From NCBI GenBank assembly GCA_965230955.1, contig OZ246404.1, positions 289,184 to 353,183 of the forward strand: a stretch of 64,000 bases of DNA, written 5' to 3'. This DNA is from an uncultured Candidatus Saccharibacteria bacterium (GTDB lineage: Bacteria > Patescibacteriota > CALEFQ01). Below the pieces are notes generated by a model. The model ran no database searches. It was not told the origin of the DNA and was given only the letters and a program-made list of their open reading frames with translations. This document shows, piece by piece, positions 24,977 through 63,588 of the stretch (its first letter is position 1; the number at the start of each line of letters is the position of its first letter). A program made the position numbers and the translations under genes.

Positions 24977-26281
24977 ATGCCTGTTCTGAAACGAACAATT
25001 GAAAAGGTCTTGAAATTCTATGCCCGGGCTGTCATTAAACGACGGCAGCCTTTAGTTGTGGGCGTGACAGGCAGTATAGGTAAGACCAGCACGAAAGAGG
25101 CGATCGCGTTGGTGCTGGCCAGCCGTTGGTCCGTGCGCCAGAGTCAGAAAAATTATAATAATGAATTGGGCGTGCCGCTGACCATTTTGGGACTGGATAC
25201 GGGCGGTCGAAGCGCGGGAGCCTGGTTAAGGATACTCACGGTCGGATTTTTCCGGGCCTTGTTTGGTACCGGCAAATATCCCCAGGTCTTAGTCCTGGAA
25301 TTGGGGATCGATCGTCCGGGCGATATGGATCCGCTGCTGTTTATGTCGAAGCCGGCGATCGGCGTCATCACTACCATTGGTCCCACCCATTTGGAATTTT
25401 TCGATAGCATCAATGAAATCGCCAAGGAAAAAGGCAAACTGGTGCGCTCTCTGAATCACGGCGGTTTCGCGGTGCTGAATTTTGACGATCAGCGCGTCAG
25501 TGATTTGGCCAATACCGTTACGGCGGAAGTATTGACTTATGGATTTCAAAAAGGAGCGGCGGTTCGCGGCTTAGTTACTCCGGCTGGCATGAGTTTGGAT
25601 AGCGACCATTGGCTGGATAGCCCGGCGAGCGGAAGAACGGGTTTGAGCCTAAAAATTTCCTACCGCGGCAATATTGTGCCCGTCCGTCTGCCGTCGGTCG
25701 GGTTGCCTCAGGCCTACGCGGCTCTGGCAGCGGCGGCGGTGGGTTTGTCTCAGAAGATGAATTTGATTGAAATCGCCAATGCTTTGCACCGATGTTGTTC
25801 TTTGCCCGGACGTATGAATCTGATAGAAGGAATAAAGAAAACACTGATTGTGGATGATTCATATAATTCAGCCCCGGTTTCAGCCATTTCCGCGCTGTCT
25901 TATCTCCAGAGCATGAAAGGCAGCGGGCGCAAAATCGCGGTTTTGGGCGATATGCTGGAATTGGGAATTTATACCGAAGAGGGACATCGCGAGGTGGGGA
26001 CGCGCGCGGCCGAGGCGGTTGATATTTTGGTGACTGTCGGTCGACGAGCGAAATTCATGGCTGAGGCGGCTCGCACGGCCGGGATCTCCATGGCGAAGGA
26101 ATTTGACAGTTATCAGGAAGTCGGTAAATACTTAGAAAGTATTTTGCATCCCTATGACATGGTGTTAATCAAGGCGTCGCAGGGAATTCGTCTGGAAAAA
26201 GTGGTAAAAGAGATTATGGCTCGACCCCAAGACGCGGAAAAATTGTTGGTCCGGCAGGGGAAGAGATGGCAGGAAATATAG
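24977..26281 (+). CDS. murF: UDP-N-acetylmuramoyl-tripeptide--D-alanyl-D-alanine ligase
   Basis: Mur ligase P-loop GVTGSIGKTSTKE and MurF-type NYNNELGVPLT. Confidence 0.75.
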   Translation: MPVLKRTIEKVLKFYARAVIKRRQPLVVGVTGSIGKTSTKEAIALVLASRWSVRQSQKNYNNELGVPLTILGLDTGGRSAGAWLRILTVGFFRALFGTGKYPQVLVLELGIDRPGDMDPLLFMSKPAIGVITTIGPTHLEFFDSINEIAKEKGKLVRSLNHGGFAVLNFDDQRVSDLANTVTAEVLTYGFQKGAAVRGLVTPAGMSLDSDHWLDSPASGRTGLSLKISYRGNIVPVRLPSVGLPQAYAALAAAAVGLSQKMNLIEIANALHRCCSLPGRMNLIEGIKKTLIVDDSYNSAPVSAISALSYLQSMKGSGRKIAVLGDMLELGIYTEEGHREVGTRAAEAVDILVTVGRRAKFMAEAARTAGISMAKEFDSYQEVGKYLESILHPYDMVLIKASQGIRLEKVVKEIMARPQDAEKLLVRQGKRWQEI

Positions 26282-26287
26282 TCGCTG

Positions 26288-26333
26288 GTCATTAGTCGTT
26301 AGTCTTTAGCCAACGACTAATGACTAAAGACTA
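26288..26333. repeat. Palindrome GTCATTAGTCG-N15-CGACTAATGAC with AGTCTTTAG repeats (murF terminator region)
   Basis: Perfect 11-bp stem; same heptamer family as at 19151 and 30034. Confidence 0.55.
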
Positions 26334-26339
26334 TTTTAT

Positions 26340-29000: not shown

Positions 29001-30035
29001 ATGAATAAATTACTACTGATTGTAATTGTCTGTTTGATTATCGGCATAGCCGTTGTTTGGTGGTGGGGACGCAGTCCTTCCCCGGCGGCTGATATTTTGG
29101 ACGTGGGGCAAGAGTTGGTGGCCGATAATCAGGATCAAAGCTTCAAAAAAGAACCGGCAGTGCCAATTGTTTCCAAGGAGCCGGTTACTCTGCTGGCGGT
29201 CGGCGATGTGATGCTTTCTCGGCATGTCTGGACCAAGATCAAAGAGCACGGGGGAGATCCGCGTTATCCTTTTGTGGAAACGGCTCAATTTACCAAATCC
29301 GCGGATATTACTTTTGGAAATGTGGAAACGGCGGTTTCCGATCTATCCGCTCCGCCGGCCGAAGGGATGAGTTTCATCACTCCGACCAAGGCGATTGAGG
29401 GTCTCAAATATGCCGGGTTTGATATCGTGTCGCTGGCGAATAATCACTCGCTCAATTTCGGACGTGAAGCCCTGCTGGATAGCGTCAATCAATTGGCCGA
29501 CCAGGGAATCAAGTCCGCCGGCGCCGGCGAAAACATCGAATCGGCGCACGCCCCGGCGATTTTGGAAGTGAAGGGAAACAAAATAGCGTTCTTGGCTTAT
29601 CAGAATGTCGGTCCGGAAGACGCCTGGGCCGCCACGGCGACCAAAACTGGTCTAGCGTGGATGAATATTCCACAACTGCAACAAGATATTAAGGCGATTC
29701 GCGACCAGGTCGATTATGTCATCGTTTCGATGCATGCCGGCACTGAGTATGTCTTTGACCCGATTGCTTCGCAAAAAGAATTTGCTCATGCGGCAGTTGA
29801 CTCCGGGGCCGATTTAGTCATCGGTCATCATCCTCATGTGATTCAGGACAAAGAGATCTACAAAGACAAACAGATTATTTATAGTCTGGGCAACTTTGTT
29901 TTCGACCAGATGTGGTCGGAAGAAACCCGATTGGGTGAAGTCATGACGGCCACTCTCGATAACGGGAAGATTGAGGATATTAATTTTAAAACAGTTAAAA
30001 TCTTTGATTATTGCCAGCCGAAGCTTATTGATTAG
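29001..30035 (+). CDS. CapA/PgsA-family metallophosphoesterase (poly-gamma-glutamate synthesis/capsule family)
   Basis: N-terminal TM, LLAVGDVMLSRH, GFDIVSLANNHS, MHAGTEY, GHHPHVIQ motifs. Confidence 0.65.
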   Translation: MNKLLLIVIVCLIIGIAVVWWWGRSPSPAADILDVGQELVADNQDQSFKKEPAVPIVSKEPVTLLAVGDVMLSRHVWTKIKEHGGDPRYPFVETAQFTKSADITFGNVETAVSDLSAPPAEGMSFITPTKAIEGLKYAGFDIVSLANNHSLNFGREALLDSVNQLADQGIKSAGAGENIESAHAPAILEVKGNKIAFLAYQNVGPEDAWAATATKTGLAWMNIPQLQQDIKAIRDQVDYVIVSMHAGTEYVFDPIASQKEFAHAAVDSGADLVIGHHPHVIQDKEIYKDKQIIYSLGNFVFDQMWSEETRLGEVMTATLDNGKIEDINFKTVKIFDYCQPKLID

Positions 30036-30100
30036 TCTTTGGTCTTTAGTCTTTAGCCATAAAAAAAAGGCCAAAGACCAAAGACTAGAGACCAAAGACC
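30034..30100. repeat. Heptamer (AGTCTTT/GGTCTTT) palindromic element between capA-like and trxA
   Basis: TAGTCTTTGGTCTTTAGTCTTTAGCC-ataaaaaaaa-GGCCAAAGACCAAAGACTAGAGACCAAAGACC. Confidence 0.6.
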
Positions 30101-30114
30101 TTAATCAAAACCCC

Positions 30115-34568: not shown

Positions 34569-34587
34569 CAGTCGTTAATAATGTTCC

Positions 34588-34630
34588 GGTAGGGGCAGGC
34601 CCCGCCGATTCGGCGGGGGCCGCCCCTACC
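34588..34630. repeat. GC-rich hairpin of the GCCGATTCGGC family: GGTAGGGGCAGGCCCCGCCGATTCGGCGGGGGCCGCCCCTACC
   Basis: Nested perfect palindrome downstream of dnaK. Confidence 0.6.
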
Positions 34631-34651
34631 AATGCAAAAAACCACTATCAA

Positions 34652-35608
34652 ATGACCATCGGCATCCCGCGCGCGGGACTTTACTATTTATATTATCCGT
34701 TTTGGAAAGCGTTTCTCGAAACGCTGGGTTTTACTGTTGTCTTGTCCGCTCCGACCAATCGCAATCTTTTGGAAGCGGGGTTGAAGGTGGCCAACAGCGA
34801 AACTTGTTTACCGATGAAATTACTGTACGGCCATATTCTGGATTTGCGCGGACGAGTTGATGCTGTTTTCTTGCCTCAAATGGATGAATGTCGTTGGGGA
34901 GAAGGCACTTACGGGACTTCGACTTACTTTTGCCCTTATTTTGTCGGTTTGGCGGATGTGATGGAAGCGGAATTTCCCGATCTGAAAATTTTGCGACCGG
35001 TCATGATGTTGCATGATAATGAGATAGTGTCCGAGACTTGGCTGGAATTCGGCCGTTCTCTCGGGAAAAAACCGGCTCTGGTGAAACAAGCCTTTGAAAC
35101 GGCGAATCGTGTTTATCGGTTATTTATCGACGAGCGCGAGAAACACAAACGGACGCCGATAGAAATTTTGGAGAAGCAGAAGCTGAACACGGGTAATTTT
35201 CGGAAGACGATTGCCTTGGTCGGACGTCCTTATCTCGTGTATGAAAGCGCGGCCAATTTGGAAATTATCAAAAAAATCAATCAGCGCGGCTATCGGGTCG
35301 AGACCATGGAAATGGTGTCCCTGGCCGACAGCCGGAGTGGTTTGCGGCAACTGCCTTATGCCCAGCGATCGCACTGGTACCAAACAAATGAAGAATACGG
35401 ATCGCTGATTCATTTTGGCCGGCGGTCCGATATCAAGGGAATCATTTATCTGGTGCCGTTCAATTGCGGTCCTGATTTCATGCTGGAAGAAGTTGTCATT
35501 TCCGACTTGCGTAAGCGAAAACCGGTGGCTATAATTTCCATCGATGAATCTACCGGCGAGGCCGGGCTGACGACGAGATTGGATGCCTTCCTTGATATGC
35601 TAAAGTAA
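34652..35608 (+). CDS. HgdAB/DUF2229-family subunit, set B subunit 1
   Basis: MTIGIPRAGLYYLYYPFWKAFLETLGFTVVLS; NSETCLPMKLLYGH; PFNCGPD; C-terminal IDESTGEAGLTTRLDAFLD. Confidence 0.6.
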   Translation: MTIGIPRAGLYYLYYPFWKAFLETLGFTVVLSAPTNRNLLEAGLKVANSETCLPMKLLYGHILDLRGRVDAVFLPQMDECRWGEGTYGTSTYFCPYFVGLADVMEAEFPDLKILRPVMMLHDNEIVSETWLEFGRSLGKKPALVKQAFETANRVYRLFIDEREKHKRTPIEILEKQKLNTGNFRKTIALVGRPYLVYESAANLEIIKKINQRGYRVETMEMVSLADSRSGLRQLPYAQRSHWYQTNEEYGSLIHFGRRSDIKGIIYLVPFNCGPDFMLEEVVISDLRKRKPVAIISIDESTGEAGLTTRLDAFLDMLK

Positions 35609-35612
35609 TTAT

Positions 35613-36773
35613 ATGATTTACGCTTCTTATCCGGCGCTCAACGAATACTTGGCCATGCGGGCTATGTTTCAATTTTTCGGCAAAAAATTTGCCGATTTGC
35701 CGCCGATTACCGATGAAATGCTGACCTGGGGTGAAGCCAAATCGCCGGAGTATGCTTGCTTGCCTTTTAAGATTTATCTCGCTTTTTGCCGGGAATTGGC
35801 TCGCCGAGGGATTAATGCTTTCTTTGTTCACGGTATCAGAAATATCCGCGCTTGCCGGTATATAGATTTATGGGAGGGAATTCAGAAAATAGTTCGGCGC
35901 GAGGGCTACCCTGATTTCACGGTTTATTCCTGGAGCGGTTATGGAGCGAAAAAATCATTCCAGACTTTACAAGAAATCATGGGCGGTCCGTCATACGCCA
36001 AAATGATTATCGGCGTTCTGGTATATTGCGCGACGCTTGATGCGACCGACCGTTTGAATGACTTGGCCAATGCCGCCCGGCCGCGGGAAATAATCGCCGG
36101 CAGCGTCGATAAGTGGCTGAGTGGCTGGCTGAAAAAGTTAGAAGCGGTTAATCGCAAAAGCCAACCGCCCCGGATTGTCGCGGCGGCTCGGAAGGATTTC
36201 AAAAAAATCAAACTGGATCAATCTCGTCCGATCGTTCGGGTGGCCTTGGCCGGTGATCTTTTCAAAATTCATGAACCGTTTTTCAATTTCGACACTATCC
36301 GGAAATTGAATCGTCTGGGAGTGGAGGTAAAACAGCCCCAGTCTTTTTCCCTGCTCTTCATGGGCGATAACAAAATTTGGCCGGGCGGTTATTATCATCG
36401 CCAAATCGCGAAATGCAAGAAAAAATCCAAGAAATATTTGAAATCCATCCCGGGCTCTTATTTGGATGTCGGCATCGGAGAAATTGTCGATCAATTGGAC
36501 GAGGGAGCGCAAGGCGTGGTGCATTTCCAATCTTTTGGCTGCATGCCCGATATTATGTTAAAACCGATCTTGGATCGGATCGCCAGAGATTATAAAGTTC
36601 CGATTATTCACTATATGCGCGATACTCATGCTTCGGACGCGGCCTACCAGACTCGTTTGGAAGCTTTTGCCGATTTATTAAAGCGAAAGGAACTAAATAA
36701 TAAAAATCAGAAGTACGAAATTAGAAATTCGAAACAATATTCAAATTCTAAGCACGGAAACCCCGGTGTTTAG
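35613..36773 (+). CDS. HgdAB/DUF2229-family subunit, set B subunit 2
   Basis: EYACLPFKIYLAFC; QSFGCMPD; DAAYQTRLEAFADLL. The C-terminal tail KYEIRNSKQYSNSKHG is encoded by a heptamer repeat. Confidence 0.6.
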   Translation: MIYASYPALNEYLAMRAMFQFFGKKFADLPPITDEMLTWGEAKSPEYACLPFKIYLAFCRELARRGINAFFVHGIRNIRACRYIDLWEGIQKIVRREGYPDFTVYSWSGYGAKKSFQTLQEIMGGPSYAKMIIGVLVYCATLDATDRLNDLANAARPREIIAGSVDKWLSGWLKKLEAVNRKSQPPRIVAAARKDFKKIKLDQSRPIVRVALAGDLFKIHEPFFNFDTIRKLNRLGVEVKQPQSFSLLFMGDNKIWPGGYYHRQIAKCKKKSKKYLKSIPGSYLDVGIGEIVDQLDEGAQGVVHFQSFGCMPDIMLKPILDRIARDYKVPIIHYMRDTHASDAAYQTRLEAFADLLKRKELNNKNQKYEIRNSKQYSNSKHGNPGV

Positions 36774-36824
36774 ACATTTTATTTATGATTTATGATTTGT
36801 TTCTGATTTCTAATTTCGGATTTC
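36715..36824. repeat. Heptamer (GAAATTC/GAAATTA) palindromic element overlapping the 3' end of gene 35613-36773
   Basis: ACGAAATTAGAAATTCGAAACAATATTCAAATTC ... ATTTGTTTCTGATTTCTAATTTCGGATTTC. Confidence 0.55.
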
Positions 36825-36852
36825 TTGCTTTATTTCATTAAAGAAATTAATT

Positions 36853-39896: not shown

Positions 39897-39902
39897 AGGG
39901 AG

Positions 39903-40136
39903 GTGAAGGTGAGACGAGATAAAATTTCGAAAGAAGAGTATCTAGCGGATCAGCGGGGCGGGGCAACACGATTGCGCTGGCGGGCGATACGGGCGCATTT
40001 TTCCGACAAGCCGGTAGAAGCGGCTCGCTTCTGCCTCCGGCATGGTCCCTGTCCGGAAATCATTTTTACCGGCCTGGAGTTCAATGACCCGGACTGGTAC
40101 AATGAATTTTTCATGGAGTATTTTCGACGGGCCTAA
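39903..40136 (+). CDS. Hypothetical small protein (GTG start)
   Basis: GAGGGAGG RBS; followed by hairpin GGGCCTAAAGC/GCTTTAGGCCC at 40130-40154. Confidence 0.3.
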   Translation: MKVRRDKISKEEYLADQRGGATRLRWRAIRAHFSDKPVEAARFCLRHGPCPEIIFTGLEFNDPDWYNEFFMEYFRRA

Positions 40137-40199
40137 AGCATCGCTTTAGGCCCTCAACCTTTTATTTTTTACCATTTTATCTGTTTAAACGCGGAGTCC

Positions 40200-44349: not shown

Positions 44350-44435
44350 ACTTGATTTTTCTGGATAAATAAGTATAGTTAGTGAGGTTGATTTGTGTTT
44401 TGACTTTTGACTTAGTTTTAGGCCCTTAGATCATC

Positions 44436-44533
44436 CTATTGCGCGCTCACTTCGTTCGCGCTTCGTAGAACAGGAACCGATAGATTAATGCGGGCCTGTC
44501 CTACGAAGCTCTCGCGAAGCGAGAGCGTAGTAG
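44436..44533. mobile_element. MITE-like inverted-repeat element (about 100 bp) inserted immediately 5' of tRNA-Ala(GGC); flanked by a duplicated tRNA 5' end (GGCCCTTAGaTCATC at 44421-44435 vs GGCCCTTAGcTCATC at 44535-44549)
   Basis: Terminal inverted repeats CGCTCACTTCGTTCGCGCTTCGTAGAACAGG / CCTGTCCTACGAAGCTCTCGCGAAGCGAGAGCG; direct repeat read from sequence. A paralogous element lies upstream of tRNA-Lys. Confidence 0.5.
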
Positions 44534-44609
44534 GGGCCCTTAGCTCATCTGGTAGAGCGTTCCCATGGCATGGGAGAGGTGACCGGTTCGAGTCCGGTAG
44601 GGTCCACCA
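44534..44609 (+). tRNA. tRNA-Ala (anticodon GGC)
   Basis: GGGCCCT-TA-GCTCATCTGGTAGAGC-G-TTCCC-ATGGCAT-GGGAG-..-ACCGGTTCGAGTCCGGT-AGGGTCC-A-CCA; G3:U70 Ala identity pair present. Confidence 0.85.
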
Positions 44610-45229: not shown

Positions 45230-45342
45230 AGCGTGATGTTTTCTATCGGGAAATATATAGTTATGTTAATTGAATAGTAGGAATTTGTGTTTCCTTGCCG
45301 GTGTCCATGAAAAAAGTTCGAACATCCTCCGCTAGGGACCAC

Positions 45343-45390
45343 CAGCCCCACACTCAAGTTTTTTTCAAAAAAAACTTGAGTGTGGGGCTG
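45343..45390. repeat. Perfect palindrome of the CCCCACACTCA family (copy 2)
   Basis: CAGCCCCACACTCAAGTTTTTTT-C-AAAAAAAACTTGAGTGTGGGGCTG. Confidence 0.6.
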
Positions 45391-45519
45391 GAAAACCAAA
45401 GTTCAAAGCTTAAAATTCAAAGGAAATTTAAAATACAAACTTCAAGTGGTTTTGAATTTTGAGTTTTGCACTTTAGATTTTCAGTCCGTCTTGGGCGGAC
45501 TGTCCATGGGCACATAGCT

Positions 45520-45622
45520 TCCTCTCTCGCGCTTACTTCGTTCGCGCTTCGTAGAACAGGCTGCTGGCAATCAACCAGCAACGGGCCTGCCCTACGAAGC
45601 TCTCGCGAAGCGAGAGCGTAGT
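45520..45622. mobile_element. Second MITE-like inverted-repeat element inserted immediately 5' of tRNA-Lys; flanked by a 12-nt direct repeat of the tRNA 5' end (GGGCACATAGCT at 45508-45519 and 45623-45634)
   Basis: TIRs CGCTTACTTCGTTCGCGCTTCGTAGAACAGG / CCTGCCCTACGAAGCTCTCGCGAAGCGAGAGCG; the right end is identical to the copy at 44496-44533. Confidence 0.5.
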
Positions 45623-45698
45623 AGGGCACATAGCTCAGTCGGTAGAGCAGCTCCCTTTTAAGGAGAAGGTCGCAGGTTCGATTCCTGCTGTGCCCACC
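45623..45698 (+). tRNA. tRNA-Lys (anticodon TTT)
   Basis: GGGCACA-TA-GCTCAGTCGGTAGAGC-A-GCTCC-CTTTTAA-GGAGA-AGGTC-GCAGGTTCGATTCCTGC-TGTGCCC-A-CCA. Confidence 0.85.
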
Positions 45699-45864
45699 AC
45701 GCCACATCCCGGCCAGAGCCGGGAGTGGAAATCTAAAGCTTAAAGTTTAAAATTCAAAGGAAATTCAAAAACCAAAGTCTAAAACCGATTTCATATTTAA
45801 ATTTTGATCTTCCTTTGAATTTTTTTCTTTAAACCTTGGACTTTCACCGACGGGCGGTTACCCC

Positions 45865-50961: not shown

Positions 50962-51028
50962 AGTCAAAAATCAAAAGTCAAAAGTGCGATGATTTAACTT
51001 TGGACCTTTGACTTTTTACTTTTGACTT
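50962..51028. repeat. Heptamer (GTCAAAA) palindromic element
   Basis: AGTCAAAAATCAAAAGTCAAAAGT...TTTGACTTTTTACTTTTGACTT. Confidence 0.6.
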
Positions 51029-51466
51029 ATGAAAAGAGAGCATTCAGCCGGCATAATTCCAGTATGGATCAAGGATGAGCAGGTCCGGTTTTTGTTGCTG
51101 AAAAGTAAAACATACGGTCATTGGATGTTTCCCAAGGGGCGTTCGGAACCGGGTGAAGATGACCGGGCGACCGCTCACCGGGAATTGTTTGAAGAGACCG
51201 GGATCGATAATATTTCTTTAATTGATAAAGCGGTTTTTACGGAAAACTGGTGTTATTCCCGAGCGGGAGAAGATATTTCCAAAGACGCGAAATATTTTTT
51301 GGGAGTAGTCACGGCCGGAGACGTAAAGCCGCAGCCGGAAGAAATTACGGACTACCGCTGGGTGACGCTTCCCGAAGCCCAAAAATTATTGACGCCACAT
51401 CCGAGCAAGGCGGGAATATTGAAGCAGGCGTTTAGAGTATTGCAGCAGGAACAGCTGATTGATTAA
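51029..51466 (+). CDS. NUDIX hydrolase
   Basis: Nudix box GRSEPGEDDRATAHRELFEETGI. Confidence 0.65.
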   Translation: MKREHSAGIIPVWIKDEQVRFLLLKSKTYGHWMFPKGRSEPGEDDRATAHRELFEETGIDNISLIDKAVFTENWCYSRAGEDISKDAKYFLGVVTAGDVKPQPEEITDYRWVTLPEAQKLLTPHPSKAGILKQAFRVLQQEQLID

Positions 51467-51534
51467 GTCAAAAGTCAAAAGTCAAAAGTCAAAAGTTCAT
51501 AACTTTTTGCTTTTGATTTATTACTTTTGACTTT
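51467..51534. repeat. Heptamer (GTCAAAA x4) palindromic element between the NUDIX gene and aspS
   Basis: AGTCAAAAGTCAAAAGTCAAAAGTCAAAAGT-tcataa-CTTTTTGCTTTTGATTTATTACTTTTGACTTT. Confidence 0.65.
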
Positions 51535-51540: not shown

Positions 51541-53307
51541 ATGCTTCGTACCAACACTTGCGGCGAACTTACCAAGAAGCACGTTGCTAAAAAAACCATC
51601 CTTTGCGGCTGGGTCAATTCCCGGCGCGATCATGGCGGTTTGATTTTTGTTGATCTGCGGGATCGCTATGGGCTGACGCAGGTGGTATTCGATCCCAAAA
51701 AACAAGAAGTTTTTAAATTGGCGGACAGTTGCCGTCCGGAATTTGTTATCCGGGTAGAAGGCGAGGTGCGGGCGCGGCCGGCCAGCATGATCAATCCCGA
51801 TTTAACGACGGGGGAGATCGAAGTGGCGGCTGAGGCGATCGTGATTTTATCGAAATCATTGACTCCGCCGTTTGAGATCAATGATAAAAAGCGGACGATG
51901 GCGAACGAGGAACTGCGGTTGAAATACCGGTATTTGGATTTGCGCCATCGGTATTATTTGGAAATACTTCAGAAAAGGGATGAAATTTTTACTTTCATCC
52001 GGGAATTTTTTCATCGAAAAAAATTCATCGAAGTCCAGACGCCGATTCTGGCCAATTCCAGTCCCGAGGGAGCGCGTGATTATCTGGTGCCGTCGCGCTT
52101 GCATCCGGGAAAGTTTTACGCCTTGCCCCAGGCGCCCCAGCAATTCAAACAATTGCTGATGGTCGGGGGCTTTGATCGTTATTTTCAAATTGCTCCTTGT
52201 TTCCGCGATGAAGATCCGCGGGCCGACCGCCATCCGGGCAGCTTTTACCAGATCGATTTTGAAATGAGTTTTATCGAGCGGGAAGATTTATATGAATTGC
52301 TCGAGCCTTTTTTCATTGAAATGACGGAAAAGTTTTCTTCCAAGAAAGTAATGACCAAACCTTTCCCGCGGTTGAGTTGGGACGAGGCGATGGACACCTA
52401 CGGTTCGGACAAGCCGGATTTGCGTTATGAATTGAAATTTGTCGATGTTACTAAAGTATTTGCGGCCACCAAATTTCAGGTTTTCGCCAAAAGTTTGGGA
52501 AAAGGCGGCCTGCTCAAAGCTTTGCGCGTGCCGCAAGGCTCCAAGCTGACTCGCAAGCAGATCGATGAGCTGACGGAATTGGCTAAGCAGCAGGGACTGG
52601 GCGGGCTGGCCTATATTTCTTACAAAGAAAAGCCGATTTCGCCGATTCTTAAATTTTTGTCCGAAAAAGAGATTGCATCCATAAAAAGTGAAACCAAGGC
52701 TCAAGACGGTGATATCGTATTTTTTGCGGCCGATCAATGGGAAACCGTGGTCAAGGCTCTGGGGAAAGTGCGCTCCCGGGTCGCTGAAATGCTGAAATTG
52801 GCCGATCCTAATGTACTGGCCTGGGCCTGGATTTACGATTTTCCGATGTATACGGTCAGCGATGTCACCGGCCAGCTTGATTTTGAGCATAATCCTTTCA
52901 GTATGCCGGTCGGCGAGGAAAAAGCTTTAGAGCAAAAAGACAAAACCAAGATTCGTTCCCAGCAATTTGATGTGGTGGCTAACGGCTACGAGTTGGGAAG
53001 CGGATCAATTCGGAATCATAAGCCCGAATTATTGTACAAAGCTTTTGAATTGGCCGGTTATACCCGAGTTGAGGTTGACCAGAAATTCAAGCATATGATT
53101 GAAGCCCTGAAATTCGGCGCGCCGCCTCATGGGGGAGCGGCGCCGGGGATTGATCGCATCCTCATGCTGTTGCTTGATTGCCATAGTATCCGTGATATTT
53201 ACGCTTTCCCTCTTTCCGGTAACGCGCAGGATTTGATGACCGGCGCGCCGAGTGAAGTGGGAGAGAAGCAGTTGAAGGAATTGCATATTAAAATTGCAAA
53301 ATCTTAG
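51541..53307 (+). CDS. aspS: Aspartyl-tRNA synthetase
   Basis: Class II aaRS motifs, N-terminal OB fold, GWVNSRRDHGGLIFVDLRDRYG. Confidence 0.9.
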   Translation: MLRTNTCGELTKKHVAKKTILCGWVNSRRDHGGLIFVDLRDRYGLTQVVFDPKKQEVFKLADSCRPEFVIRVEGEVRARPASMINPDLTTGEIEVAAEAIVILSKSLTPPFEINDKKRTMANEELRLKYRYLDLRHRYYLEILQKRDEIFTFIREFFHRKKFIEVQTPILANSSPEGARDYLVPSRLHPGKFYALPQAPQQFKQLLMVGGFDRYFQIAPCFRDEDPRADRHPGSFYQIDFEMSFIEREDLYELLEPFFIEMTEKFSSKKVMTKPFPRLSWDEAMDTYGSDKPDLRYELKFVDVTKVFAATKFQVFAKSLGKGGLLKALRVPQGSKLTRKQIDELTELAKQQGLGGLAYISYKEKPISPILKFLSEKEIASIKSETKAQDGDIVFFAADQWETVVKALGKVRSRVAEMLKLADPNVLAWAWIYDFPMYTVSDVTGQLDFEHNPFSMPVGEEKALEQKDKTKIRSQQFDVVANGYELGSGSIRNHKPELLYKAFELAGYTRVEVDQKFKHMIEALKFGAPPHGGAAPGIDRILMLLLDCHSIRDIYAFPLSGNAQDLMTGAPSEVGEKQLKELHIKIAKS

Positions 53308-53362
53308 AATAATAAAAAAGCGGCTGCCAAATGGTAGCCGCTCAATATGCCGAGAAAAGGCG

Positions 53363-53758: not shown

Positions 53759-53850
53759 TATACAATTTACTTAACGGTAAAGTATATCAATAGATATCTT
53801 GGAAGTCAACTGTAGGAAAGACGGTAAAGCGCACTAGGGTGGGGTAGACC

Positions 53851-53883
53851 GCCCCCACACTCAAGTACCTTGAGTGTGGGGGC
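53851..53883. repeat. Perfect palindrome of the CCCCACACTCA family (copy 3) in a divergent intergenic region
   Basis: GCCCCCACACTCAAGTACCTTGAGTGTGGGGGC. Confidence 0.6.
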
Positions 53884-53981
53884 TCCCCTATCGTTTTAAA
53901 AAAATATTTTTTCCCGATTAATAATACCCGGCATAATAATTAAAAAAGGGGACTTGCCGGTCTCTGCCCTATCAGTTTCTC

Positions 53982-54806
53982 ATGGCTGAAATCTTGACGG
54001 TCCAAAACAAAAAGTCTTTTGACCTTCCCGGCGGAGTGATCGAGAAGTATACGTTTGTTTTGTCTGACGGGGAAAAAATCGAATCGGTTTATCGCAAATC
54101 AAAGGGGCAAGCGGAAGTATATTTGTCGTCGCAGGTGGGCTGCGGCGTCGGCTGCTCTTTTTGCGCCTGTTCGGAAGAATGGCTGATTCGCGATTTGACC
54201 TGGAAAGAAGTAGCCGCCCAGGTGGAAGCGGTTTTGGAGAACAAAAAATACCACCAGTTATCAATCCTGTTCAACGGTATCGGCGAACCGACGGATAATG
54301 GCGCGGCGGTGACCAAAGCGATTAAATATCTGCTTAAGCATTATCCTGGCGCGCACATCAAAGTGACAACCACGGGATTAAGGGAAAAAGTTTTGAAATC
54401 CTGGGCTCGCCTGCCGGTGTCACTCCAGCTGTCATTACACGCCCCGACCACGCAGTCGCGGGAAAAAATCATTCAGACCTTGATTGATATCAAACGTATC
54501 GTCAAGGCTGCTCGGCAGTGGTCCAAAGCCCGCGGAGAAAAAGTGACGGTCAATTATCTTCTCTTGAAAGATTTCAATGATTCTTACTCGGCGATTGATC
54601 AATTACTGAAACTGCTGGATCCCAGGTTTTTTCGGATTATGTTTTCTCATCTCAATCAGGTGGCTAATCGAGATTTCCCCTACCTAGAATCAGATAGATT
54701 TGCTATCCTAAAAGAGTATGTGGCGGAAAAAGGCTATGAGGTGACGGAATTCGATGATGCCGGGAAACGCGCCGGGGCGGGGTGTGGGCAGCTCACTAGC
54801 AGTTAA
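53982..54806 (+). CDS. rlmN: RlmN/Cfr-family radical SAM RNA methyltransferase (short form)
   Basis: SSQVGCGVGCSFCAC cluster motif and C-terminal GAGCGQL (methyl-transfer Cys motif). Confidence 0.6.
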   Translation: MAEILTVQNKKSFDLPGGVIEKYTFVLSDGEKIESVYRKSKGQAEVYLSSQVGCGVGCSFCACSEEWLIRDLTWKEVAAQVEAVLENKKYHQLSILFNGIGEPTDNGAAVTKAIKYLLKHYPGAHIKVTTTGLREKVLKSWARLPVSLQLSLHAPTTQSREKIIQTLIDIKRIVKAARQWSKARGEKVTVNYLLLKDFNDSYSAIDQLLKLLDPRFFRIMFSHLNQVANRDFPYLESDRFAILKEYVAEKGYEVTEFDDAGKRAGAGCGQLTSS

Positions 54807-54861
54807 AAAAGATATTAAGACGTTAAGAAAATTAAGATATTAAGATATAATTTTAAGTAGC
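54806..54861. repeat. TTAAGAT-type heptamer tandem repeats
   Basis: AAAAAGATATTAAGACGTTAAGAAAATTAAGATATTAAGATATAATTTTAAG. Confidence 0.5.
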
Positions 54862-54864: not shown

Positions 54865-55185
54865 ATGATTATAAAGAAATTAGATAAGCCGGATCGTATT
54901 ATTGCCCCGCCGGTGTCGAGATATCTCAAGTCGCGTTTCCAGATATTGGCTCCGGGCGAGGAAGTCGGGGAACACGTGACCGATCAGCGGGAAGAAATAA
55001 TCATAATCCTGAAAGGAGTCGCGACTATCGTGGAAAAGGGTCAGCCTCAGGTCTTGGCTTCGGGACACGCGGTCTACTTGCCTTCCGGCGTCCGGCACAA
55101 TGTCCGCAACGACGGGACAGAGCCGTTGCACTATGTTTATGTGGTGGCGTTGTTTGATGGCGAGGATCATCACCACCATCACTAA
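54865..55185 (+). CDS. Cupin-domain protein ending in a native penta-histidine tail
   Basis: Cupin-like core (GEEVGEHVTDQREEIIIILKG...HNVRNDGTEPL) and C-terminus DGEDHHHHH encoded by CATCACCACCATCAC. Confidence 0.5.
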   Translation: MIIKKLDKPDRIIAPPVSRYLKSRFQILAPGEEVGEHVTDQREEIIIILKGVATIVEKGQPQVLASGHAVYLPSGVRHNVRNDGTEPLHYVYVVALFDGEDHHHHH

Positions 55186-55244
55186 GTCAAAAGTAAAAAG
55201 TAAAAAGTTCTGAACTTTTGACTTTTGACCTTTGACTTTTGACT
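55186..55244. repeat. Heptamer (GTCAAAA/GTAAAAA) palindromic element
   Basis: AGTCAAAAGTAAAAAGTAAAAAGT-tctgaa-CTTTTGACTTTTGACCTTTGACTTTTGACTT. Confidence 0.6.
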
Positions 55245-55252
55245 TAAAATTT

Positions 55253-55780: not shown

Positions 55781-55800
55781 CCTGCCTGCCGGCAGGCAGG
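55781..55800. terminator. Perfect GC palindrome CCTGCCTGCCGGCAGGCAGG after the ybaK-like gene
   Basis: Read directly. Confidence 0.5.
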
Positions 55801-55896: not shown

Positions 55897-56592
55897 ATGT
55901 ACAAGGTTCAACTCGCTCAATTTACCGGTCCGCTCGATTTACTCCTGCAGCTGATCGAGAAAGAAGAAATGGACATCACGACTGTCAGCCTGGCCAAGGT
56001 GGCGGATCAGTATTTGGATTACATGAATCAGATTGAAAACTTGAGCCCGCGGGATATCGCCGAATTTTTAGAGGTGGCGGCGCGCCTGATCTTGATCAAG
56101 TCCAAAGCGCTTTTGCCTCAGCTGGAATTCAGCGATGATGAAGAATTAAGCGCCGAGGAATTGGCCCTGCGTCTGCAGGAATACAAAAAGTTCAAGCAAG
56201 CCGGGCTGGGATTACGCCGGCTTTTGGATCGGAAGCATTATTCTTTCGGCCGGCAGATTTATCTGGAGGAAGAAAAAGTATTCAGCCCCCCGCCGGACTT
56301 GACGACGCAGACTTTGCGCGAAACTTTTGCCGCTGTTTTGGGCGCGGTGCCCCAGATGGATTATTTGGAAGAAGAGGTAATGGTTGACGTCGTGTCGCTG
56401 GAGGATAAAATAGACCATATCCGTAGTACTCTGACGGAGAAATTAAATACCCATTTTCATAAGTTGCATGATTCCAAGTCCAAGATGGAAATTATCGTTA
56501 CTTTCCTGGCTATGCTAGAATTGATGAAACAGCGAATCATTGACGTGAACCAGGATCAGATTTTCGGCGCGATTGAGTTGAAAAAGATATAA
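55897..56592 (+). CDS. scpA: Segregation and condensation protein A
   Basis: MYKVQLAQFTGPLDLLLQLIEKEEMDITTVSLAKVADQYL. Confidence 0.8.
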   Translation: MYKVQLAQFTGPLDLLLQLIEKEEMDITTVSLAKVADQYLDYMNQIENLSPRDIAEFLEVAARLILIKSKALLPQLEFSDDEELSAEELALRLQEYKKFKQAGLGLRRLLDRKHYSFGRQIYLEEEKVFSPPPDLTTQTLRETFAAVLGAVPQMDYLEEEVMVDVVSLEDKIDHIRSTLTEKLNTHFHKLHDSKSKMEIIVTFLAMLELMKQRIIDVNQDQIFGAIELKKI

Positions 56593-56632
56593 AAGATATT
56601 AAGAGTATTAAGATATTAAGAAAGTTAAGAGT
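56590..56632. repeat. TTAAGAT-type heptamer tandem repeats between scpA and scpB
   Basis: AAAAGATATTAAGAGTATTAAGATATTAAGAAAGTTAAGAGTT. Confidence 0.5.
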
Positions 56633-59369: not shown

Positions 59370-59388
59370 GCGAATAAGTCATTATCAA

Positions 59389-59454
59389 AAATTCCCCTCA
59401 CACTCAGGATTTGGAATGACCTTTCCGTGCCTGAGTGTGGGGGGAATTTTTTTG
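59389..59454. repeat. Hairpin element of the CCCCACACTCAGG family (copy 4)
   Basis: AAAATTCCCCTCACACTCAGG-ATTTGGAATGACCTTTCCGTG-CCTGAGTGTGGGGGGAATTTTT; the loop is conserved with copy 1. Confidence 0.6.
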
Positions 59455-59486
59455 ACAAAAAATTGGTTTTGTGTTAAGTTTGCCTT

Positions 59487-59546
59487 AATTCCCCTTCGTC
59501 CCGCGAGGCGGGACTTCGGCCTACGGCCGACAAAGGTCGGGGAATT
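59487..59546 (+). ncRNA. Candidate structured leader RNA (multi-stem) upstream of the D-Ala-D-Ala carboxypeptidase gene
   Basis: Outer stem AATTCCCC/GGGGAATT encloses hairpins GTCCCGC-gag-GCGGGAC and GGCC-tac-GGCC. Secondary structure is inferred from sequence only. Confidence 0.25.
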
Positions 59547-59598
59547 TACGTTCCGGAGAGTTTTGCTCTACGAATAATCTTAGCTGCTGGGAACTTCA

Positions 59599-60552: not shown

Positions 60553-60600
60553 AAATAAGTCAAAAGTCAAAGGTCAAAAGTGAAGACGTTGAAGATAATA

Positions 60601-60632
60601 AAAAAGCGCGGCGGAAGGTCGCGCTTTTGTGA
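60601..60632. terminator. Rho-independent terminator AAAAGCGCG-gcggaaggt-CGCGCTTTT
   Basis: Lies between convergent genes; the stem is flanked by A and T runs. Confidence 0.65.
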
Positions 60633-60649: not shown

Positions 60650-61060
60650 CTAATTACTTTTCTGTCCAAAATCTGGATGTTGAGATAGAAAAGTATCCAG
60701 AGTGTTTTTGTCGGTAAACATGATCAGGTTACAATCATCATGCCCTTCGATAGTTCTGCCGTAATCGCTTTTAGCGAGCCAGATGGTATCAAAAGGCTGG
60801 GGCCATTTGTCACCGGCCAAAAGTGATCGGGATTCGTTCCAGCTGATAATTTCCACTTTCTTGAGAAGTTGGCTTGATTGTGGCAATATCAGCAATTGAG
60901 GCGAATCACCTTTGGGGGAGTAAGAAATGTTTAGAATCTTAATCTCCTGTACTTCCCATAAGGGTGCAGCCTCCGCCCGCAAGCTGATGTAAACCACGCC
61001 GGCAACGAAAAAAAGGGCAATGGTTAGGGCAATGCTAAAGGGATGTTTTATTACTGCCAT
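60650..61060 (-). CDS. Secreted/membrane-anchored hypothetical protein
   Basis: N-terminal TM/signal peptide; no motif. Confidence 0.4.
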   Translation of the reverse strand: MAVIKHPFSIALTIALFFVAGVVYISLRAEAAPLWEVQEIKILNISYSPKGDSPQLLILPQSSQLLKKVEIISWNESRSLLAGDKWPQPFDTIWLAKSDYGRTIEGHDDCNLIMFTDKNTLDTFLSQHPDFGQKSN

Positions 61061-61264
61061 AAAGACCTCCTTTGTTAGCAGTCAATGAGAAAACTAGGGC
61101 TAAATTAACAATTATTCAGGGGCCGGTCAAGTAGTTTTTCCATTAGACAAGGGGCGTTTCTTATGGTAATTTATAAGTAGCTAAAACTGTGCAAAACTGG
61201 TGTTTTTGGTTAATTATCTTAGTTAGTTTTGCATTATGAATTTTGAATTCTGAATTATCTTCTT

Positions 61265-62308
61265 ATGCTTGAACTCTTTGAATTCCAAGATCCGGAGAAG
61301 GTGAATAACCTGATCTTTGTATTGGCAATGTCGATCGGGTCTTTTGGTTTGGCTATGGCTCTGACCCCGTTGTTGACTCATTTTTTGTACAAATACAAAT
61401 TTTGGAAAGTCCAACAGAAAAAATCGGAAGTGACGGGAGAACAAACTCCGATTATTCAAAAACTTCACGCTCAAAAACACCAGCGTAATCTGCCGACCAT
61501 GGCCGGAGTGCTGATTGTTTTTGTGGTGATTGCGCTTACTTTGGTTTTCAATCTCGATCGTTCGCAGACATTTTTGCCCCTGTTTGCGATCGGCAGTTTC
61601 GCCGTGATTGGGATTATCAACGATTATATCAATGTTCGCCGGATTGGCGCCTCGGCCGGTATCAGTTCGCGTTTGAAATGGATTTTACTTCTGGCTTTGG
61701 CCGCAGGTTGCGCCTGGTGGTTTTACTATAAACTGGGTTGGAGCACCATTCATATCCCAGCTTGGGGCGATTTGGAAATCGGTTGGTGGTATTTCCCGCT
61801 GTTCATGCTCGTCATTGTTTCTACCGCCAATGCGGTCAATATTACCGATGGTTTGGATGGTTTGGCCGGCGGGTTGACTTCGATGGCTTTCGGCGCTTTT
61901 GGTGCGATTGCTTTTGCCCGAGGACAGATCGGTCTGGCGGTTTTTTGCGCCACGGTTATGGGAGCGCTATTGGCCTATACTTGGTTCAATATTTATCCGG
62001 CGCGTTTCATCATGGGCGATACCGGCTCACTGGCGCTGGGAGCGACGCTGGGCGTGGTGGCCATGCTGACTAATTCGGTTTTGATTTTACCGATCATCGG
62101 TTTTGTTTTCGTGATTGATACCGGGTCTTCCTTACTCCAGTTATCTTCGAAAAAACTTTTCAAGCGGAAGATTTGGCCGATCGCGCCGCTACATCATTAT
62201 TTTGAATACAAGGGCTGGCCGGAGACCAAGGTGACGATGCGCTTCTGGGTGATCGGGGCGATTTTCGCCATCATCGGCCTGGCGATTGGGTTGATTGGCA
62301 GGGGGTAA
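61265..62308 (+). CDS. mraY: Phospho-N-acetylmuramoyl-pentapeptide transferase
   Basis: HAQKHQRNLPTMAG (KxxTPTMGG-like), NAVNITDGLDGLAGG, ten TM helices. Confidence 0.75.
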   Translation: MLELFEFQDPEKVNNLIFVLAMSIGSFGLAMALTPLLTHFLYKYKFWKVQQKKSEVTGEQTPIIQKLHAQKHQRNLPTMAGVLIVFVVIALTLVFNLDRSQTFLPLFAIGSFAVIGIINDYINVRRIGASAGISSRLKWILLLALAAGCAWWFYYKLGWSTIHIPAWGDLEIGWWYFPLFMLVIVSTANAVNITDGLDGLAGGLTSMAFGAFGAIAFARGQIGLAVFCATVMGALLAYTWFNIYPARFIMGDTGSLALGATLGVVAMLTNSVLILPIIGFVFVIDTGSSLLQLSSKKLFKRKIWPIAPLHHYFEYKGWPETKVTMRFWVIGAIFAIIGLAIGLIGRG

Positions 62309-62376
62309 GTAACAAGTAACAAGTAACAAATAGGAATATATCTATTTTTGTTACTTTTTACCTGATACCTGTTAAT
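62306..62376. repeat. Heptamer (GTAACAA) palindromic element starting at the mraY stop codon
   Basis: GTAAGTAACAAGTAACAAGTAACAAAT...TTTGTTACTTTTTACCTGATACCTGTTAAT. Confidence 0.6.
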
Positions 62377-62383: not shown

Positions 62384-63517
62384 ATGTTTCTCAAAAAAGA
62401 TAAAAAAGAGCCGCCAAAGTATTATGTCTGGATTCTCCTGGGGATTATTGTGTTTGGCCTGATCCTTTGGGTTTGGCAATGGTGGCAAGCTCGCTTGCCG
62501 GAGGATCCGAAAAAGGCCGTGGCGGAAGTGACGGCCAAAATGGATAAGATCAAATCGGTCGACCTGCAAATCACCCATGTCTTATCCGCTCCGGATAGTG
62601 AAGCGGTCGAGGTTAGCGCGCAGGTTGAGCTGAAGCTTCCCGATGAATATCAAGGAAAAATGAAAATCACCGGTCCTGATTCATTTCTGAAAGATTTGCC
62701 GTTTTCGGCCGAGCGTGATTTCGCGCGAATTCAGCACAAAGAGTATACCCGGGATCAGGGCCAGGCCGACTGGGTTGATCAGTCGGTTGATCCGGATTAT
62801 GTCCCATTTTTGAAAATTGAACCGTTGTCATTCCTGAATTTTTCTTTGGACAACGCCGACATTGCTCGGGAAAAAGACGAAACAATCGCGGGCACAAATT
62901 ATGCCGTGTATTCTTTCGGCTATTCTCGGGAAAAATTGGCGGAAGCTCTCAAGCCTTTCTCTCTTTTGATTGATGAAATTCCGGCGGAGGCGGAAGTCCG
63001 CGGGCAAATTTGGTTTAATCCCAAAACTAGATTGCTCTACCAACAAAAAGTGTCGGTGCTATTGCCGGGGCTGGGCGGAGAAGAAGCCACGACGGTTTTT
63101 TCGGATTATGACGGAATGGTGATGATAACTCCTATGGATAAAGTCGTGTCGGCGACGCCGGCTGATTCCGGGCAAACCAACCAGGAAGGCAGTCAAGAGC
63201 GCGAGGAGCGCAATCAGAAACGGCAGGTCGATTTATTGGCAATCAAAGCCGCGCTGGAAAAAATCTACGATGACGAGCATGTTTACCCCGAATCGGCCGA
63301 ATCGGCTAACATCGGCGATGATCAGTCGGAAGTTCATCAGAAACTTTTGAAATACTTAAAAGAAGTGCCGGCCGATCCCCAGTCGCCGAAATATTATTAC
63401 GCCTATAAATGCACCGGGGGAGAACAATTCGAGCTGACCGGTATTCAGGAAAGCGAGGCCGGCAGTCCTAAAGTCATCATGCTGACTCAGGGGTTTGATT
63501 ATTTTAAAGATAAGTAA
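62384..63517 (+). CDS. Membrane-anchored secreted hypothetical protein
   Basis: N-terminal TM; no recognisable domain. Confidence 0.45.
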   Translation: MFLKKDKKEPPKYYVWILLGIIVFGLILWVWQWWQARLPEDPKKAVAEVTAKMDKIKSVDLQITHVLSAPDSEAVEVSAQVELKLPDEYQGKMKITGPDSFLKDLPFSAERDFARIQHKEYTRDQGQADWVDQSVDPDYVPFLKIEPLSFLNFSLDNADIAREKDETIAGTNYAVYSFGYSREKLAEALKPFSLLIDEIPAEAEVRGQIWFNPKTRLLYQQKVSVLLPGLGGEEATTVFSDYDGMVMITPMDKVVSATPADSGQTNQEGSQEREERNQKRQVDLLAIKAALEKIYDDEHVYPESAESANIGDDQSEVHQKLLKYLKEVPADPQSPKYYYAYKCTGGEQFELTGIQESEAGSPKVIMLTQGFDYFKDK

Positions 63518-63588
63518 CAAGTAACAGGTAACAAGTAACAAATTGGAAAAACAGCCATTTTGTTACCTGTTACTTGTTAACTGTTAAT
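63512..63588. repeat. Heptamer (GTAACAA/GTAACAG) palindromic element starting at the stop codon
   Basis: TAAGTAACAAGTAACAGGTAACAAGTAACAAATT...TTTGTTACCTGTTACTTGTTAACTGTTAAT. Confidence 0.6.

Follow-up and report, generated by a model that had tools for sequence, protein, structure and literature searches.

Tandem heptamers form AT-rich quasi-palindromes between the genes of a Candidatus Saccharibacteria bacterium

The gene spacers of an uncultured Candidatus Saccharibacteria bacterium (Patescibacteriota; CALEFQ01) contain palindromic elements built from AT-rich tandem repeats with a unit of 7 nt. We analysed these elements in a stretch of 64,000 nt (contig OZ246404.1, positions 289,184-353,183; assembly GCA_965230955.1), referred to here as the window, to which all sequence statistics apply unless relatives are named. 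The window harbours 14 long AU-rich hairpins and 6 one-armed arrays, amounting to about 20 elements per 64 kb, and about 17 of its roughly 50 spacers with a length of at least 30 nt (about a third) are occupied. With modest confidence we interpret the elements as heptanucleotide microsatellites that are arranged as quasi-palindromes and transcribed as intercistronic hairpins.

Tandem Repeats Finder and our own lag-7 scan, complemented by a lag-p scan covering periods 4-12, revealed 21 period-7 runs in the window compared with 0-3 runs for each of the other periods. Within the spacers (10.1 kb) 19 period-7 runs were found, compared with 0.07 +/- 0.27 in 200 dinucleotide-preserving shuffles of the spacer sequence, and the other periods between 4 and 12 gave 0-1 runs. 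Twenty of the 21 arrays lie outside open reading frames (ORFs) of at least 100 amino acids (aa), though such ORFs make up 86% of the window (P = 2e-16). An array was scored as paired if a reverse-complement match of 16 nt with at most 3 mismatches was present within 120 nt. By this measure 17 of the 21 arrays (81%) have an inverted partner, whereas a complement-only control with the same composition gives 3 of 21. A sequence-only reading of this DNA had proposed a family of intergenic palindromes made from tandem heptamers, and the family is real: it stands far above shuffles and is specific for period 7 and for spacers. The 15 sites listed earlier comprise 11 true heptamer palindromes, two one-armed arrays at 9141-9175 and 60557-60585, and two arrays of period 8/9 without a partner at 54806-54861 and 56590-56632; the hairpins at 21648-21709, 45385-45487 and 45725-45847 and the one-armed arrays at 44392-44413 and 61233-61258 were missing from that list.

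The elements consist of three to five AT-rich 7-nt units, a short loop and an inverted array, as illustrated by the two hairpins that lie either side of a NUDIX gene. The first (50962-51027; -21.4 kcal/mol, z -5.7) contains imperfect AGTCAAA units, an 18-nt loop and TTTGACT units; it fills the spacer between a 126-aa gene and the NUDIX gene and runs up to 1 nt short of the ATG at 51029. The second (51465-51533; -28.1 kcal/mol, z -8.3) starts from the stop codon of the NUDIX gene and leaves 7 nt to the AspRS ATG; its perfect (GTCAAAA)x4 array is separated by 3 nt from an inverted copy that is degenerate. All 14 hairpins fold at -18 to -43 kcal/mol with z-scores from -2.2 to -8.7; element 62300 reaches a z of only -2.2, and the other 13 range from -19 to -43 kcal/mol and from z -3.9 to -8.7. 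Their stems comprise 23-54 bp with about 80% A+T. Over 99 arrays from the window and array-bearing relatives, the units are composed of 43% A, 36.5% T, 10% G and 10% C and contain no G-tracts, and at least six unit families occur within 64 kb of this single genome. Arrays of the same family were found in adjacent spacers in four pairs compared with about 2.6 expected from a hand calculation, a difference that is not significant.

The hairpins fit closely between the stop codon of one gene and the start codon of the next. At eight elements (21648, 24878, 26278, 30030, 50962, 51465, 55183 and 63515) the upstream stop codon lies at most 3 nt from the first paired base, and at element 62300 it is located within the stem, confirming the earlier statement that a number of elements start from the stop codon of a gene. 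The downstream start codon follows 1-12 nt, mostly 1-10 nt, past the last paired base at eight elements. For element 24878 the start is found 16 nt past the stem in the minimum-energy register, and extra 3' units permit other registers. The genes flanking the elements are unrelated housekeeping genes. In the window hairpins occupy the mraZ-rsmH and the ftsI-mur ligase junctions, and in relatives the scpA-scpB junction; we take these gene pairs of the dcw cluster and the scpAB operon to be co-transcribed. As the elements fill stop-to-start spacers inside operons, they must be transcribed within the polycistronic RNA. Further hairpins stand between a gene and tRNA-Glu and between tRNA-Lys and tRNA-Ala. 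The starts next to hairpins mostly lack a Shine-Dalgarno sequence. The same applies to most start codons throughout the window (e.g. 19224, 24977, 51029, 51541 and 62384), the clear exceptions being GGAAAGGAGG upstream of the small ORF at 17817 and AAAGGAGG upstream of the gene 60650-61060 on the minus strand.

The closest homologues of the AspRS encoded in the window (51541-53307) come from metagenome bins of Patescibacteria/Candidate Phyla Radiation (CPR), among them Falkowbacteria, Buchananbacteria and Uhrbacteria. L001, the only further contig whose AspRS is identical, matches the window base for base and is therefore uninformative on strain-level polymorphism. Contigs syntenic with window positions 50.5-64 kb showed AspRS identities of 84% for L002, 89% for L003 and L005, 87% for L206 and 81% for L207; at the nucleotide level the AspRS genes are 83% (L005) and 79% (L002) identical, with 58% at third positions for L002. 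Nearly all orthologous spacers of these relatives contain an AT-rich heptamer hairpin that differs in its unit, its copy number or as a whole element, and arm lengths vary at every one of these spacers. The NUDIX-AspRS spacer harbours GTCAAAA/TTTTGAC in the window, L005 and L002, GGCAAAA and GGTAAAA with TTTTGCC and TTTTACC in L207, and CGCAAAA/ACGTTTT in L206. All five orthologues still fold as hairpins, so the two arms have changed together. The scpA-scpB spacer contains a degenerate one-armed AAGATATT array in the window compared with a full TAAGAT(A/T) hairpin in L002 and L005, and the one-armed array at 60555 is absent from L005, where the adjoining terminator is nearly identical. The spacer after the MraY-like gene contains GTAACAA units in the window and L002, and the element has been wholly replaced by GTCAAAA in L005. 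The irregular stretch GACTTATTACTTTTGACTT occurs both in the 3' arm of this L005 element and in the L005 NUDIX-AspRS element. This replacement and the shared GACTTATTACTTTTGACTT demonstrate some copying between loci, as the sequence-only reading had suspected. An alignment of nine GTCAAAA elements grouped them by locus and not by genome; inheritance is therefore mainly vertical and inter-locus copying occasional. In these relatives the position of the hairpin is kept, but its unit, its copy number or the element itself changes.

The same data bear on the possibility that the elements are non-autonomous mobile elements of the MITE (miniature transposable element with inverted repeats) or REPIN type, placed by a transposase. 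Intergenic palindromes, the replacement of one whole element with an irregular unit common to two loci, and the small GC-rich insertions lying within arrays in relatives would agree with such an origin. Against this, copies cluster by locus rather than by genome, the units differ between sites, the aligned GTCAAAA elements have no common termini beyond the units, target duplications are absent, and element length varies between 55 and 137 nt. Moreover, a Pfam scan of about 40 window ORFs detected no transposase. On the basis of this alignment and the ORF scan we rejected transposase-driven mobility, which appears extremely improbable.

In L002 a stretch of about 30 nt (CCGCCC[GA]AGGC[GT]GATC[TC]GTCTTGGGC; ~5780-5810 and ~9800-9830) interrupts or abuts GTCAAAA-type arrays in two spacers, and recalls the small dispersed repeats that are reportedly nested in heptamer arrays of Nostoc. 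A perfect GC palindrome, CCTGCCTGCCGGCAGGCAGG, is present in the YbaK-scpA spacer of the window (55781-55800) and in identical form inside the NUDIX-AspRS heptamer element of L207 (~470-490), which suggests a tiny palindrome that is mobile or arises convergently.

Outside this group of relatives the arrays are patchily distributed. Among 80 AspRS-anchored loci from GTDB species representatives, an excess of period-7 runs was observed in several Patescibacteria at 56-60% AspRS identity, with 18 runs in 21.8 kb of L012, 14 in L013 (Falkowbacteria) and further cases in L008-L011 and L060; the units there include CGAAATA, TAAATGC, GAAATTG, TTTTGAA and GAAATCC. No such excess was found in the closer L004, L007 and L018 (72% AspRS identity) or L065 and L069 (66-67%), in which genes are packed and spacers are much shorter, nor in the Clostridia and Alphaproteobacteria loci of the set. 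Pairing was found for 54 of the 78 arrays in the array-bearing Patescibacteria (control 26). A search for exact (GTCAAAA)3G matches in metagenomes of the Joint Genome Institute (JGI) returned at least 120 contigs (L085-L204) with a GC content of 0.30-0.66, and among the matches listed 71 of 307 arrays are paired (control 27). The ORF-based classing of these mixed contigs is crude: 45 GTCAAAA arrays fall into long ORFs that may be spurious, because the GTCAAAA strand has no stops. Some of these metagenome arrays are very long, with 36 units in L099, and those on high-GC contigs often have a perfect inverted partner. The GTCAAAA unit thus recurs among widely differing organisms. Heptamer arrays are thus widespread, and mainly palindromic arrays are a trait of particular lineages, this one included.

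Taken together, these observations lead us to propose that units would be won and lost through replication slippage, that the arms would stay complementary by templated arm-to-arm copying (quasi-palindrome correction), and that a whole element would now and then be copied to another spacer. Template switching that corrects quasi-palindromes is a mechanism from E. coli genetics, which we infer here for the heptamer arrays. Slippage is seen directly in the array at 61233, with three units in the window and two in L005, and in the perfect (GTCAAAA)x4 arm that stands opposite a decayed partner arm. We are fairly confident that slippage together with template switching generates and maintains the elements.

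A function of the transcribed hairpins is conceivable, yet we hold it with less assurance. Transcripts would fold into AU-rich hairpins of 23-54 bp inside the polycistronic RNA, and their likeliest effect would be intercistronic punctuation, either as a leaky terminator or as a barrier to 3'-exonucleases, with an A-rich 5' arm and a U-rich 3' arm. As a side effect, initiation at the downstream cistron might be tied to unwinding of the hairpin by the ribosome terminating upstream. The layout of the arms points in this direction. Of 38 independent hairpins taken from 10 genomes, 27 have the A-rich arm in front of the T-rich one (p = 0.014; 38 versus 13 before de-duplication), and this layout matches the A-tract/hairpin/U-tract order of bidirectional terminators. 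Since an A-first layout reads identically on both strands of a palindrome, a strand-specific mutational bias is an unlikely source. One-armed arrays between co-directional genes likewise have the A-rich strand as sense strand in 43 cases compared with 20, and mostly lie just past the stop codon.

Several findings weigh against this function. The summed folds of the 14 hairpins amount to -413 kcal/mol for the sense and -415 kcal/mol for the antisense strand, and at five orthologous spacers the orthologues favour either strand. Equal folding of both strands means that the G-U signature expected of selection on the sense RNA is missing; this comparison covers the 14 hairpins and the five orthologous spacers only and does not refute an RNA function. 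Equal strand stability also fits maintenance at the DNA level via template switching between arms. The A-first bias is of moderate size and may have a mutational cause, and hairpins also stand beside tRNA genes and at one convergent gene end, where translational coupling is inapplicable. Finally, rapid turnover and absence from some closer relatives indicate that the elements are dispensable. A more ambitious extension envisages a lineage-wide punctuation system in Patescibacteria poor in Shine-Dalgarno sequences and promoters, with structure selected and sequence free, where nearly every spacer's hairpin would act as leaky terminator, RNase III site, 3' barrier or translational-coupling switch opened by the upstream terminating ribosome. 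We regard it as unlikely; within it, a dedicated factor might sense the 7-nt periodicity.

The main rival explanation is a neutral or selfish by-product, i.e. heptamers that expand in tolerated spacers and are kept palindromic by arm-to-arm switching with no function as RNA or DNA. Fast turnover of units with gain, loss and changes in copy number, folding without sense/antisense asymmetry, the patchy occurrence with array-free close relatives of tighter spacing, a stop-codon content equal to the composition expectation (see below) and similar arrays in very many unrelated metagenome contigs all agree with this explanation, and a polymerase-slippage account of the heptamer excess already exists (PMC4692102, PMC4679880). 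It is harder to reconcile with a hairpin that persists at the same spacers in five relatives despite sequence replacement, with the occupation of about a third of the spacers in a streamlined genome, and with the A-first excess (27 versus 11) and the sense bias of one-armed arrays, for which a strand-symmetric neutral process offers no obvious explanation. We therefore consider pure neutrality a serious but doubtful alternative to quasi-palindromic microsatellites transcribed as intercistronic hairpins.

Strand symmetry could also reflect an element acting at the DNA level, in which periodic heptamers bind a protein or cruciforms organise or insulate the chromosome. The folding energies are strand-symmetric, the periodic units hint at cooperative binding, and certain units recur in distant genomes, with GAAATCC shared by the window and L013 and GTCAAAA very widespread. 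However, the unit changes between close relatives at a single spacer, which argues against a conserved sequence-specific binder, the six or more unit families of one genome point the same way, and no candidate protein was identified. The tight fit to stop and start codons favours gene expression over chromosome structure. A DNA-level role is accordingly very unlikely in our view, and the intercistronic hairpin remains our preferred interpretation.

The sequence-only reading had explained the elements as cassettes selected to supply stop codons in all frames on both strands and to terminate transcription. Its arithmetic is sound, as 7 and 3 are coprime and three stop-containing heptamers give a stop in each frame, and several genes do end in the first unit. 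The first arms of the GTAACAA, TAAGATA and TAGTCNT elements indeed contain stops in all three frames. Over 15 sites of the window, however, the sense strand of the first arm provides all-frame stops at only six. The first arms of GTCAAAA, the commonest unit family (50962, 51465), and of GAAATCC have no sense-strand stop. A census of 99 arrays from the window and the array-bearing relatives revealed a TAA, TAG or TGA on the given strand in 66.7% of the consensus units compared with 63.0% expected from composition, and on either strand in 84.8% compared with 85.3%. The ORFs 16618-17709 and 35613-36773 read through the 5' arms of GAAATCC-type arrays (elements 17664 and 36709). In the metagenome contigs, counted over the co-directional subset, the sense strand after genes carries stop-free GTCAAAA 21 times and TTTTGAC, with its all-frame stops, 7 times. 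That elements start at stop codons has a simpler reason: an AT-rich array abutting a gene supplies the first stop, or else the ORF runs on. With a stop content equal to composition, stop-free first arms, ORF read-through and a preference for the stop-free GTCAAAA strand, we rejected the stop cassette; the stop codons are a by-product of composition.

The two ORFs that cross GAAATCC-type arrays belong to anciently duplicated gene pairs (15714-17709 and 34652-36773), each consisting of a DUF2229 gene and an HGD-D-like gene with 25% identity between the copies. Read-through of the arrays leaves both pairs with C-terminal tails that resemble each other, namely IRNPKSEIRN and NKNQKYEIRN. The arrays at the HGD-D-like genes are either partly coding or extend the ORFs artificially. 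No homologues of the two HGD-D-like genes were found in the loci retrieved from relatives.

The second half of the earlier proposal, transcription termination, fared no better. The stems are long and AT-rich and lack a discrete U-tract, and none of the heptamer hairpins in the 44-64 kb section was flagged by a consensus terminator scan; they do not conform to intrinsic terminators as defined by a short GC-rich stem, a 3-8 nt loop and a U-tract at the end of a transcription unit. Hairpins placed inside operons without room for a downstream promoter cannot be efficient terminators, and strong termination is thereby excluded by position. Neither manual spacing checks nor a promoter scan revealed a consistent promoter within the elements, with TTGAC of TTTTGAC considered as -35 and TAAGAT as -10. 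Selection for all-frame stops combined with termination is thus hardly credible as the origin of the family. Ordinary terminator-like hairpins, composed of a GC stem with an A-run and a T-run, are located at convergent gene ends at 3075-3138, 9170-9206, 53310-53345 and 60602-60628.

A second, GC-rich hairpin family with the stem CCCCACACTCARG / CYTGAGTGTGGGG was observed at 3075-3138, 45342-45391, 53849-53885 and 59387-59451 of the window and also in L003 (~4080-4110) and L005 (~2600-2630), with 8 arms compared with 0.11 expected by chance. Most copies have their stem between an A-run and a T-run and resemble bidirectional terminators with a conserved stem of the repetitive extragenic palindromic (REP) kind. 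In close relatives this hairpin is kept at the orthologous post-AspRS spacer.

The window has a GC content of 47.5% and a constantly positive GC skew, and its genes lie nearly all on the plus strand. They include mraZ, rsmH, a ftsI-type penicillin-binding protein (PBP), Mur ligase, lexA, dinB, hrcA, dnaK and dnaJ, as well as NUDIX, AspRS, radical-SAM, cupin, YbaK-like, scpA, scpB, D-Ala-D-Ala carboxypeptidase and MraY-like transferase genes. The remaining hairpins, given here in order and with no strand assigned, begin with an element that has GAAATCC outer arms and a nested inner palindrome (17664-17800; -43.2 kcal/mol, z -5.4). The next (19152-19219; -29.2 kcal/mol, z -6.2) has AGTCTTT/GGTCTTT units with the T-rich arm first and ends 4 nt before the ATG at 19224; it forms the end of the 220-nt spacer between lexA and the dinB/Pol IV gene directly downstream of it (18200-20393). 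AGATTCA/TGAATTC-type units fill the mraZ-rsmH spacer (21648-21709; -19.4 kcal/mol, z -3.9). Between the ftsI-type PBP and the Mur ligase gene, TAAGATA units form a hairpin (24878-24976; -29.5 kcal/mol, z -6.2) whose first three stem bases are the stop codon TAA and whose 3' arm carries the extra units. From the stop codon of the Mur ligase gene to tRNA-Glu (26340) extends a TAGTCNT element (26278-26334; -29.3 kcal/mol, z -8.7), and a further AGTCTTT/GGTCTTT hairpin, again with the T-rich arm first, starts from the stop codon of a PGA_cap gene (30030-30106; -32.4 kcal/mol, z -8.1). The element with GAAATYN outer arms holds a GC hairpin in its loop (36709-36825; -38.8 kcal/mol, z -6.9). Upstream of tRNA-Lys a TTCAAAG/TTTGAAT-type hairpin is found (45385-45487; -37.9 kcal/mol, z -6.6), followed by a TTAAAG/TTCAAAG-type hairpin between tRNA-Lys and tRNA-Ala (45725-45847; -34.6 kcal/mol, z -5.3). 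The GTCAAAA/GTAAAAA hairpin between the cupin and YbaK-like genes contains the stop codon in its stem (55183-55246; -19.4 kcal/mol, z -4.6). The weakest fold belongs to the element after the MraY-like gene (62300-62373; -18.3 kcal/mol, z -2.2), which has a perfect (GTAACAA)x3 5' arm and a decayed 3' arm, and in the last GTAACAA hairpin (63515-63586; -31.9 kcal/mol, z -6.9) the stop codon of the gene is the TAA of the first unit.

The one-armed arrays all lie on the plus strand. A TAACAAG array starts from a stop codon (9138-9171) and is followed by the GC hairpin and T-run at 9170-9206, and a GTCAAAA array after a stop codon (60555-60581) precedes the ordinary terminator-like hairpin at 60602-60628. 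An unstructured TTTTGAC array is located upstream of tRNA-Ala (44392-44413; z +0.4), and a TGAATTN array directly 5' of the ATG at 61265 (61233-61258). Two AAGATATT arrays lack an inverted partner and are unstructured in the window, one of period 8 (54806-54861; z -0.25) and one of period 8-9 in the scpA-scpB spacer (56590-56632; z -0.75).

Searches of Rfam at the gathering threshold detected only tRNAs, and at permissive settings the heptamer hairpins gave sub-threshold chance hits to miRNA-precursor models. Apart from the heptamers, two imperfect palindromes that are related to each other, GC-rich and about 100 nt long (CGCGCTCACTTCGTTCGCGCTTCGTAGAACAGG...) stand at 44435-44534 and 45528-45618, directly upstream of tRNA-Ala(GGC) and tRNA-Lys(UUU). 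Five GC-rich, strongly structured spacers without heptamers were noted at 2160-2298 (-73 kcal/mol), 34569-34651 (-44), 39897-40199 (-108), 45230-45623 (-157) and 59370-59598 (-91 kcal/mol), and none of them has a match in Rfam.

The excess of heptamers in prokaryotes has been unexplained since 2007, and this lineage represents an extreme, compact case in which metagenomes and metatranscriptomes make two questions testable, namely why the unit is 7 nt and whether structure or sequence is under selection. In practical terms, apparent stop codons and C-terminal tails arise or move because of the arrays, as in the ORFs crossing GAAATCC arrays; the arrays can also mislead gene callers and terminator predictors, and are probable break points of assemblies. 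Should the hairpins indeed punctuate operon RNAs, they would join the small number of regulatory features recorded for this uncultured phylum.

The closest known counterpart of the elements is found in Xanthomonas, where GGGAATC heptamers form 70-75 convergent inverted pairs per genome that are able to form stem-loops (Rehm et al. 2015, PMC4692102). These arrays are intergenic and transcribed. In a comparison of two species 83% have the same neighbouring genes, though length and sequence vary, and single arrays usually remain single and inverted pairs remain pairs (PMC4692102). The architecture is thus shared with the window elements in its inverted arrays, stem-loop, kept gene context and variable length and sequence. 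In contrast, the Xanthomonas units are G-rich, G-quadruplex-forming and essentially of one family, whereas those of the window have about 80% A+T, are unable to form G-quadruplexes, belong to at least six families, are paired in 81% of the arrays and fill the whole stop-to-start spacer. More generally, heptanucleotides were described as outnumbering every other class of long microsatellite in the majority of prokaryotic genomes, with a polymerase-footprint/slippage mechanism put forward to explain it (Mrazek et al. 2007, summarised by PMC4679880 and PMC4692102). According to these summaries of the survey, the 7-nt excess, intergenic bias, scattered phylogeny and slippage are all as in the window; the arrays it describes are direct, with no palindromic architecture, and come from a time when Patescibacteria were not available, whereas the window arrays are mostly palindromic. 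The TAACTGA repeats of Beggiatoaceae, Cyanobacteria and Bacteroidetes are present in 2-6 copies directly upstream of starts without Shine-Dalgarno sequences (MacGregor 2015, PMC4679880). They also occur in ribosomal-protein operons, have been proposed to act post-transcriptionally and comprise 169 direct sets and one inverted set (PMC4679880). They represent one fixed unit, almost always in direct orientation, and, like the window arrays, lie in spacers next to starts without Shine-Dalgarno sequences. A search of the window revealed no TAACTGA arrays, only two matches with 2 mismatches, both within GTAACAA arrays.

REP sequences, bacterial interspersed mosaic elements (BIMEs) and REPINs of proteobacteria are likewise intergenic and often intra-operonic transcribed palindromes, which can serve as barriers to 3'-exonucleases or as weak terminators; by this likeness, the heptamer hairpins may have a similar barrier or weak-terminator function. 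REPs differ in that they are fixed, GC-rich sequences of about 20-40 nt with many near-identical copies mobilised by RAYT transposases, whereas the arms in the window are periodic, AT-rich and variable between sites. The short tandemly repeated repetitive (STRR) sequences of heterocystous cyanobacteria (Mazel et al. 1990) reportedly comprise several families of tandem heptamers per genome as direct arrays in non-coding DNA. Like the window arrays they are multi-family heptamers of non-coding DNA, and we know of no report of palindromic pairing or stop-to-start placement for them. Bidirectional intrinsic terminators resemble the window hairpins in following genes directly and in being A-rich at the 5' and U-rich at the 3' side on both strands; the window stems differ in being long, AT-rich, intra-operonic and without a discrete U-tract.

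Our literature search found no description of heptamer, simple sequence repeat or palindrome elements in Patescibacteria/CPR; most subscription journals lay outside it, so this absence is not proof. The supposition that the architecture had not been described before nevertheless has to be withdrawn, because inverted heptamer pairs are known in Xanthomonas (PMC4692102) and, according to a later summary (PMC4679880), the heptamer excess has been on record since 2007. The elements are a Patescibacterial variant of a known, unexplained repeat class. What distinguishes this variant are its AT-rich units, the many families per genome, the pairing of about 80% of the arrays, the A-first bias, the full occupation of spacers in operons, and the documented replacement of units and of elements at orthologous sites.

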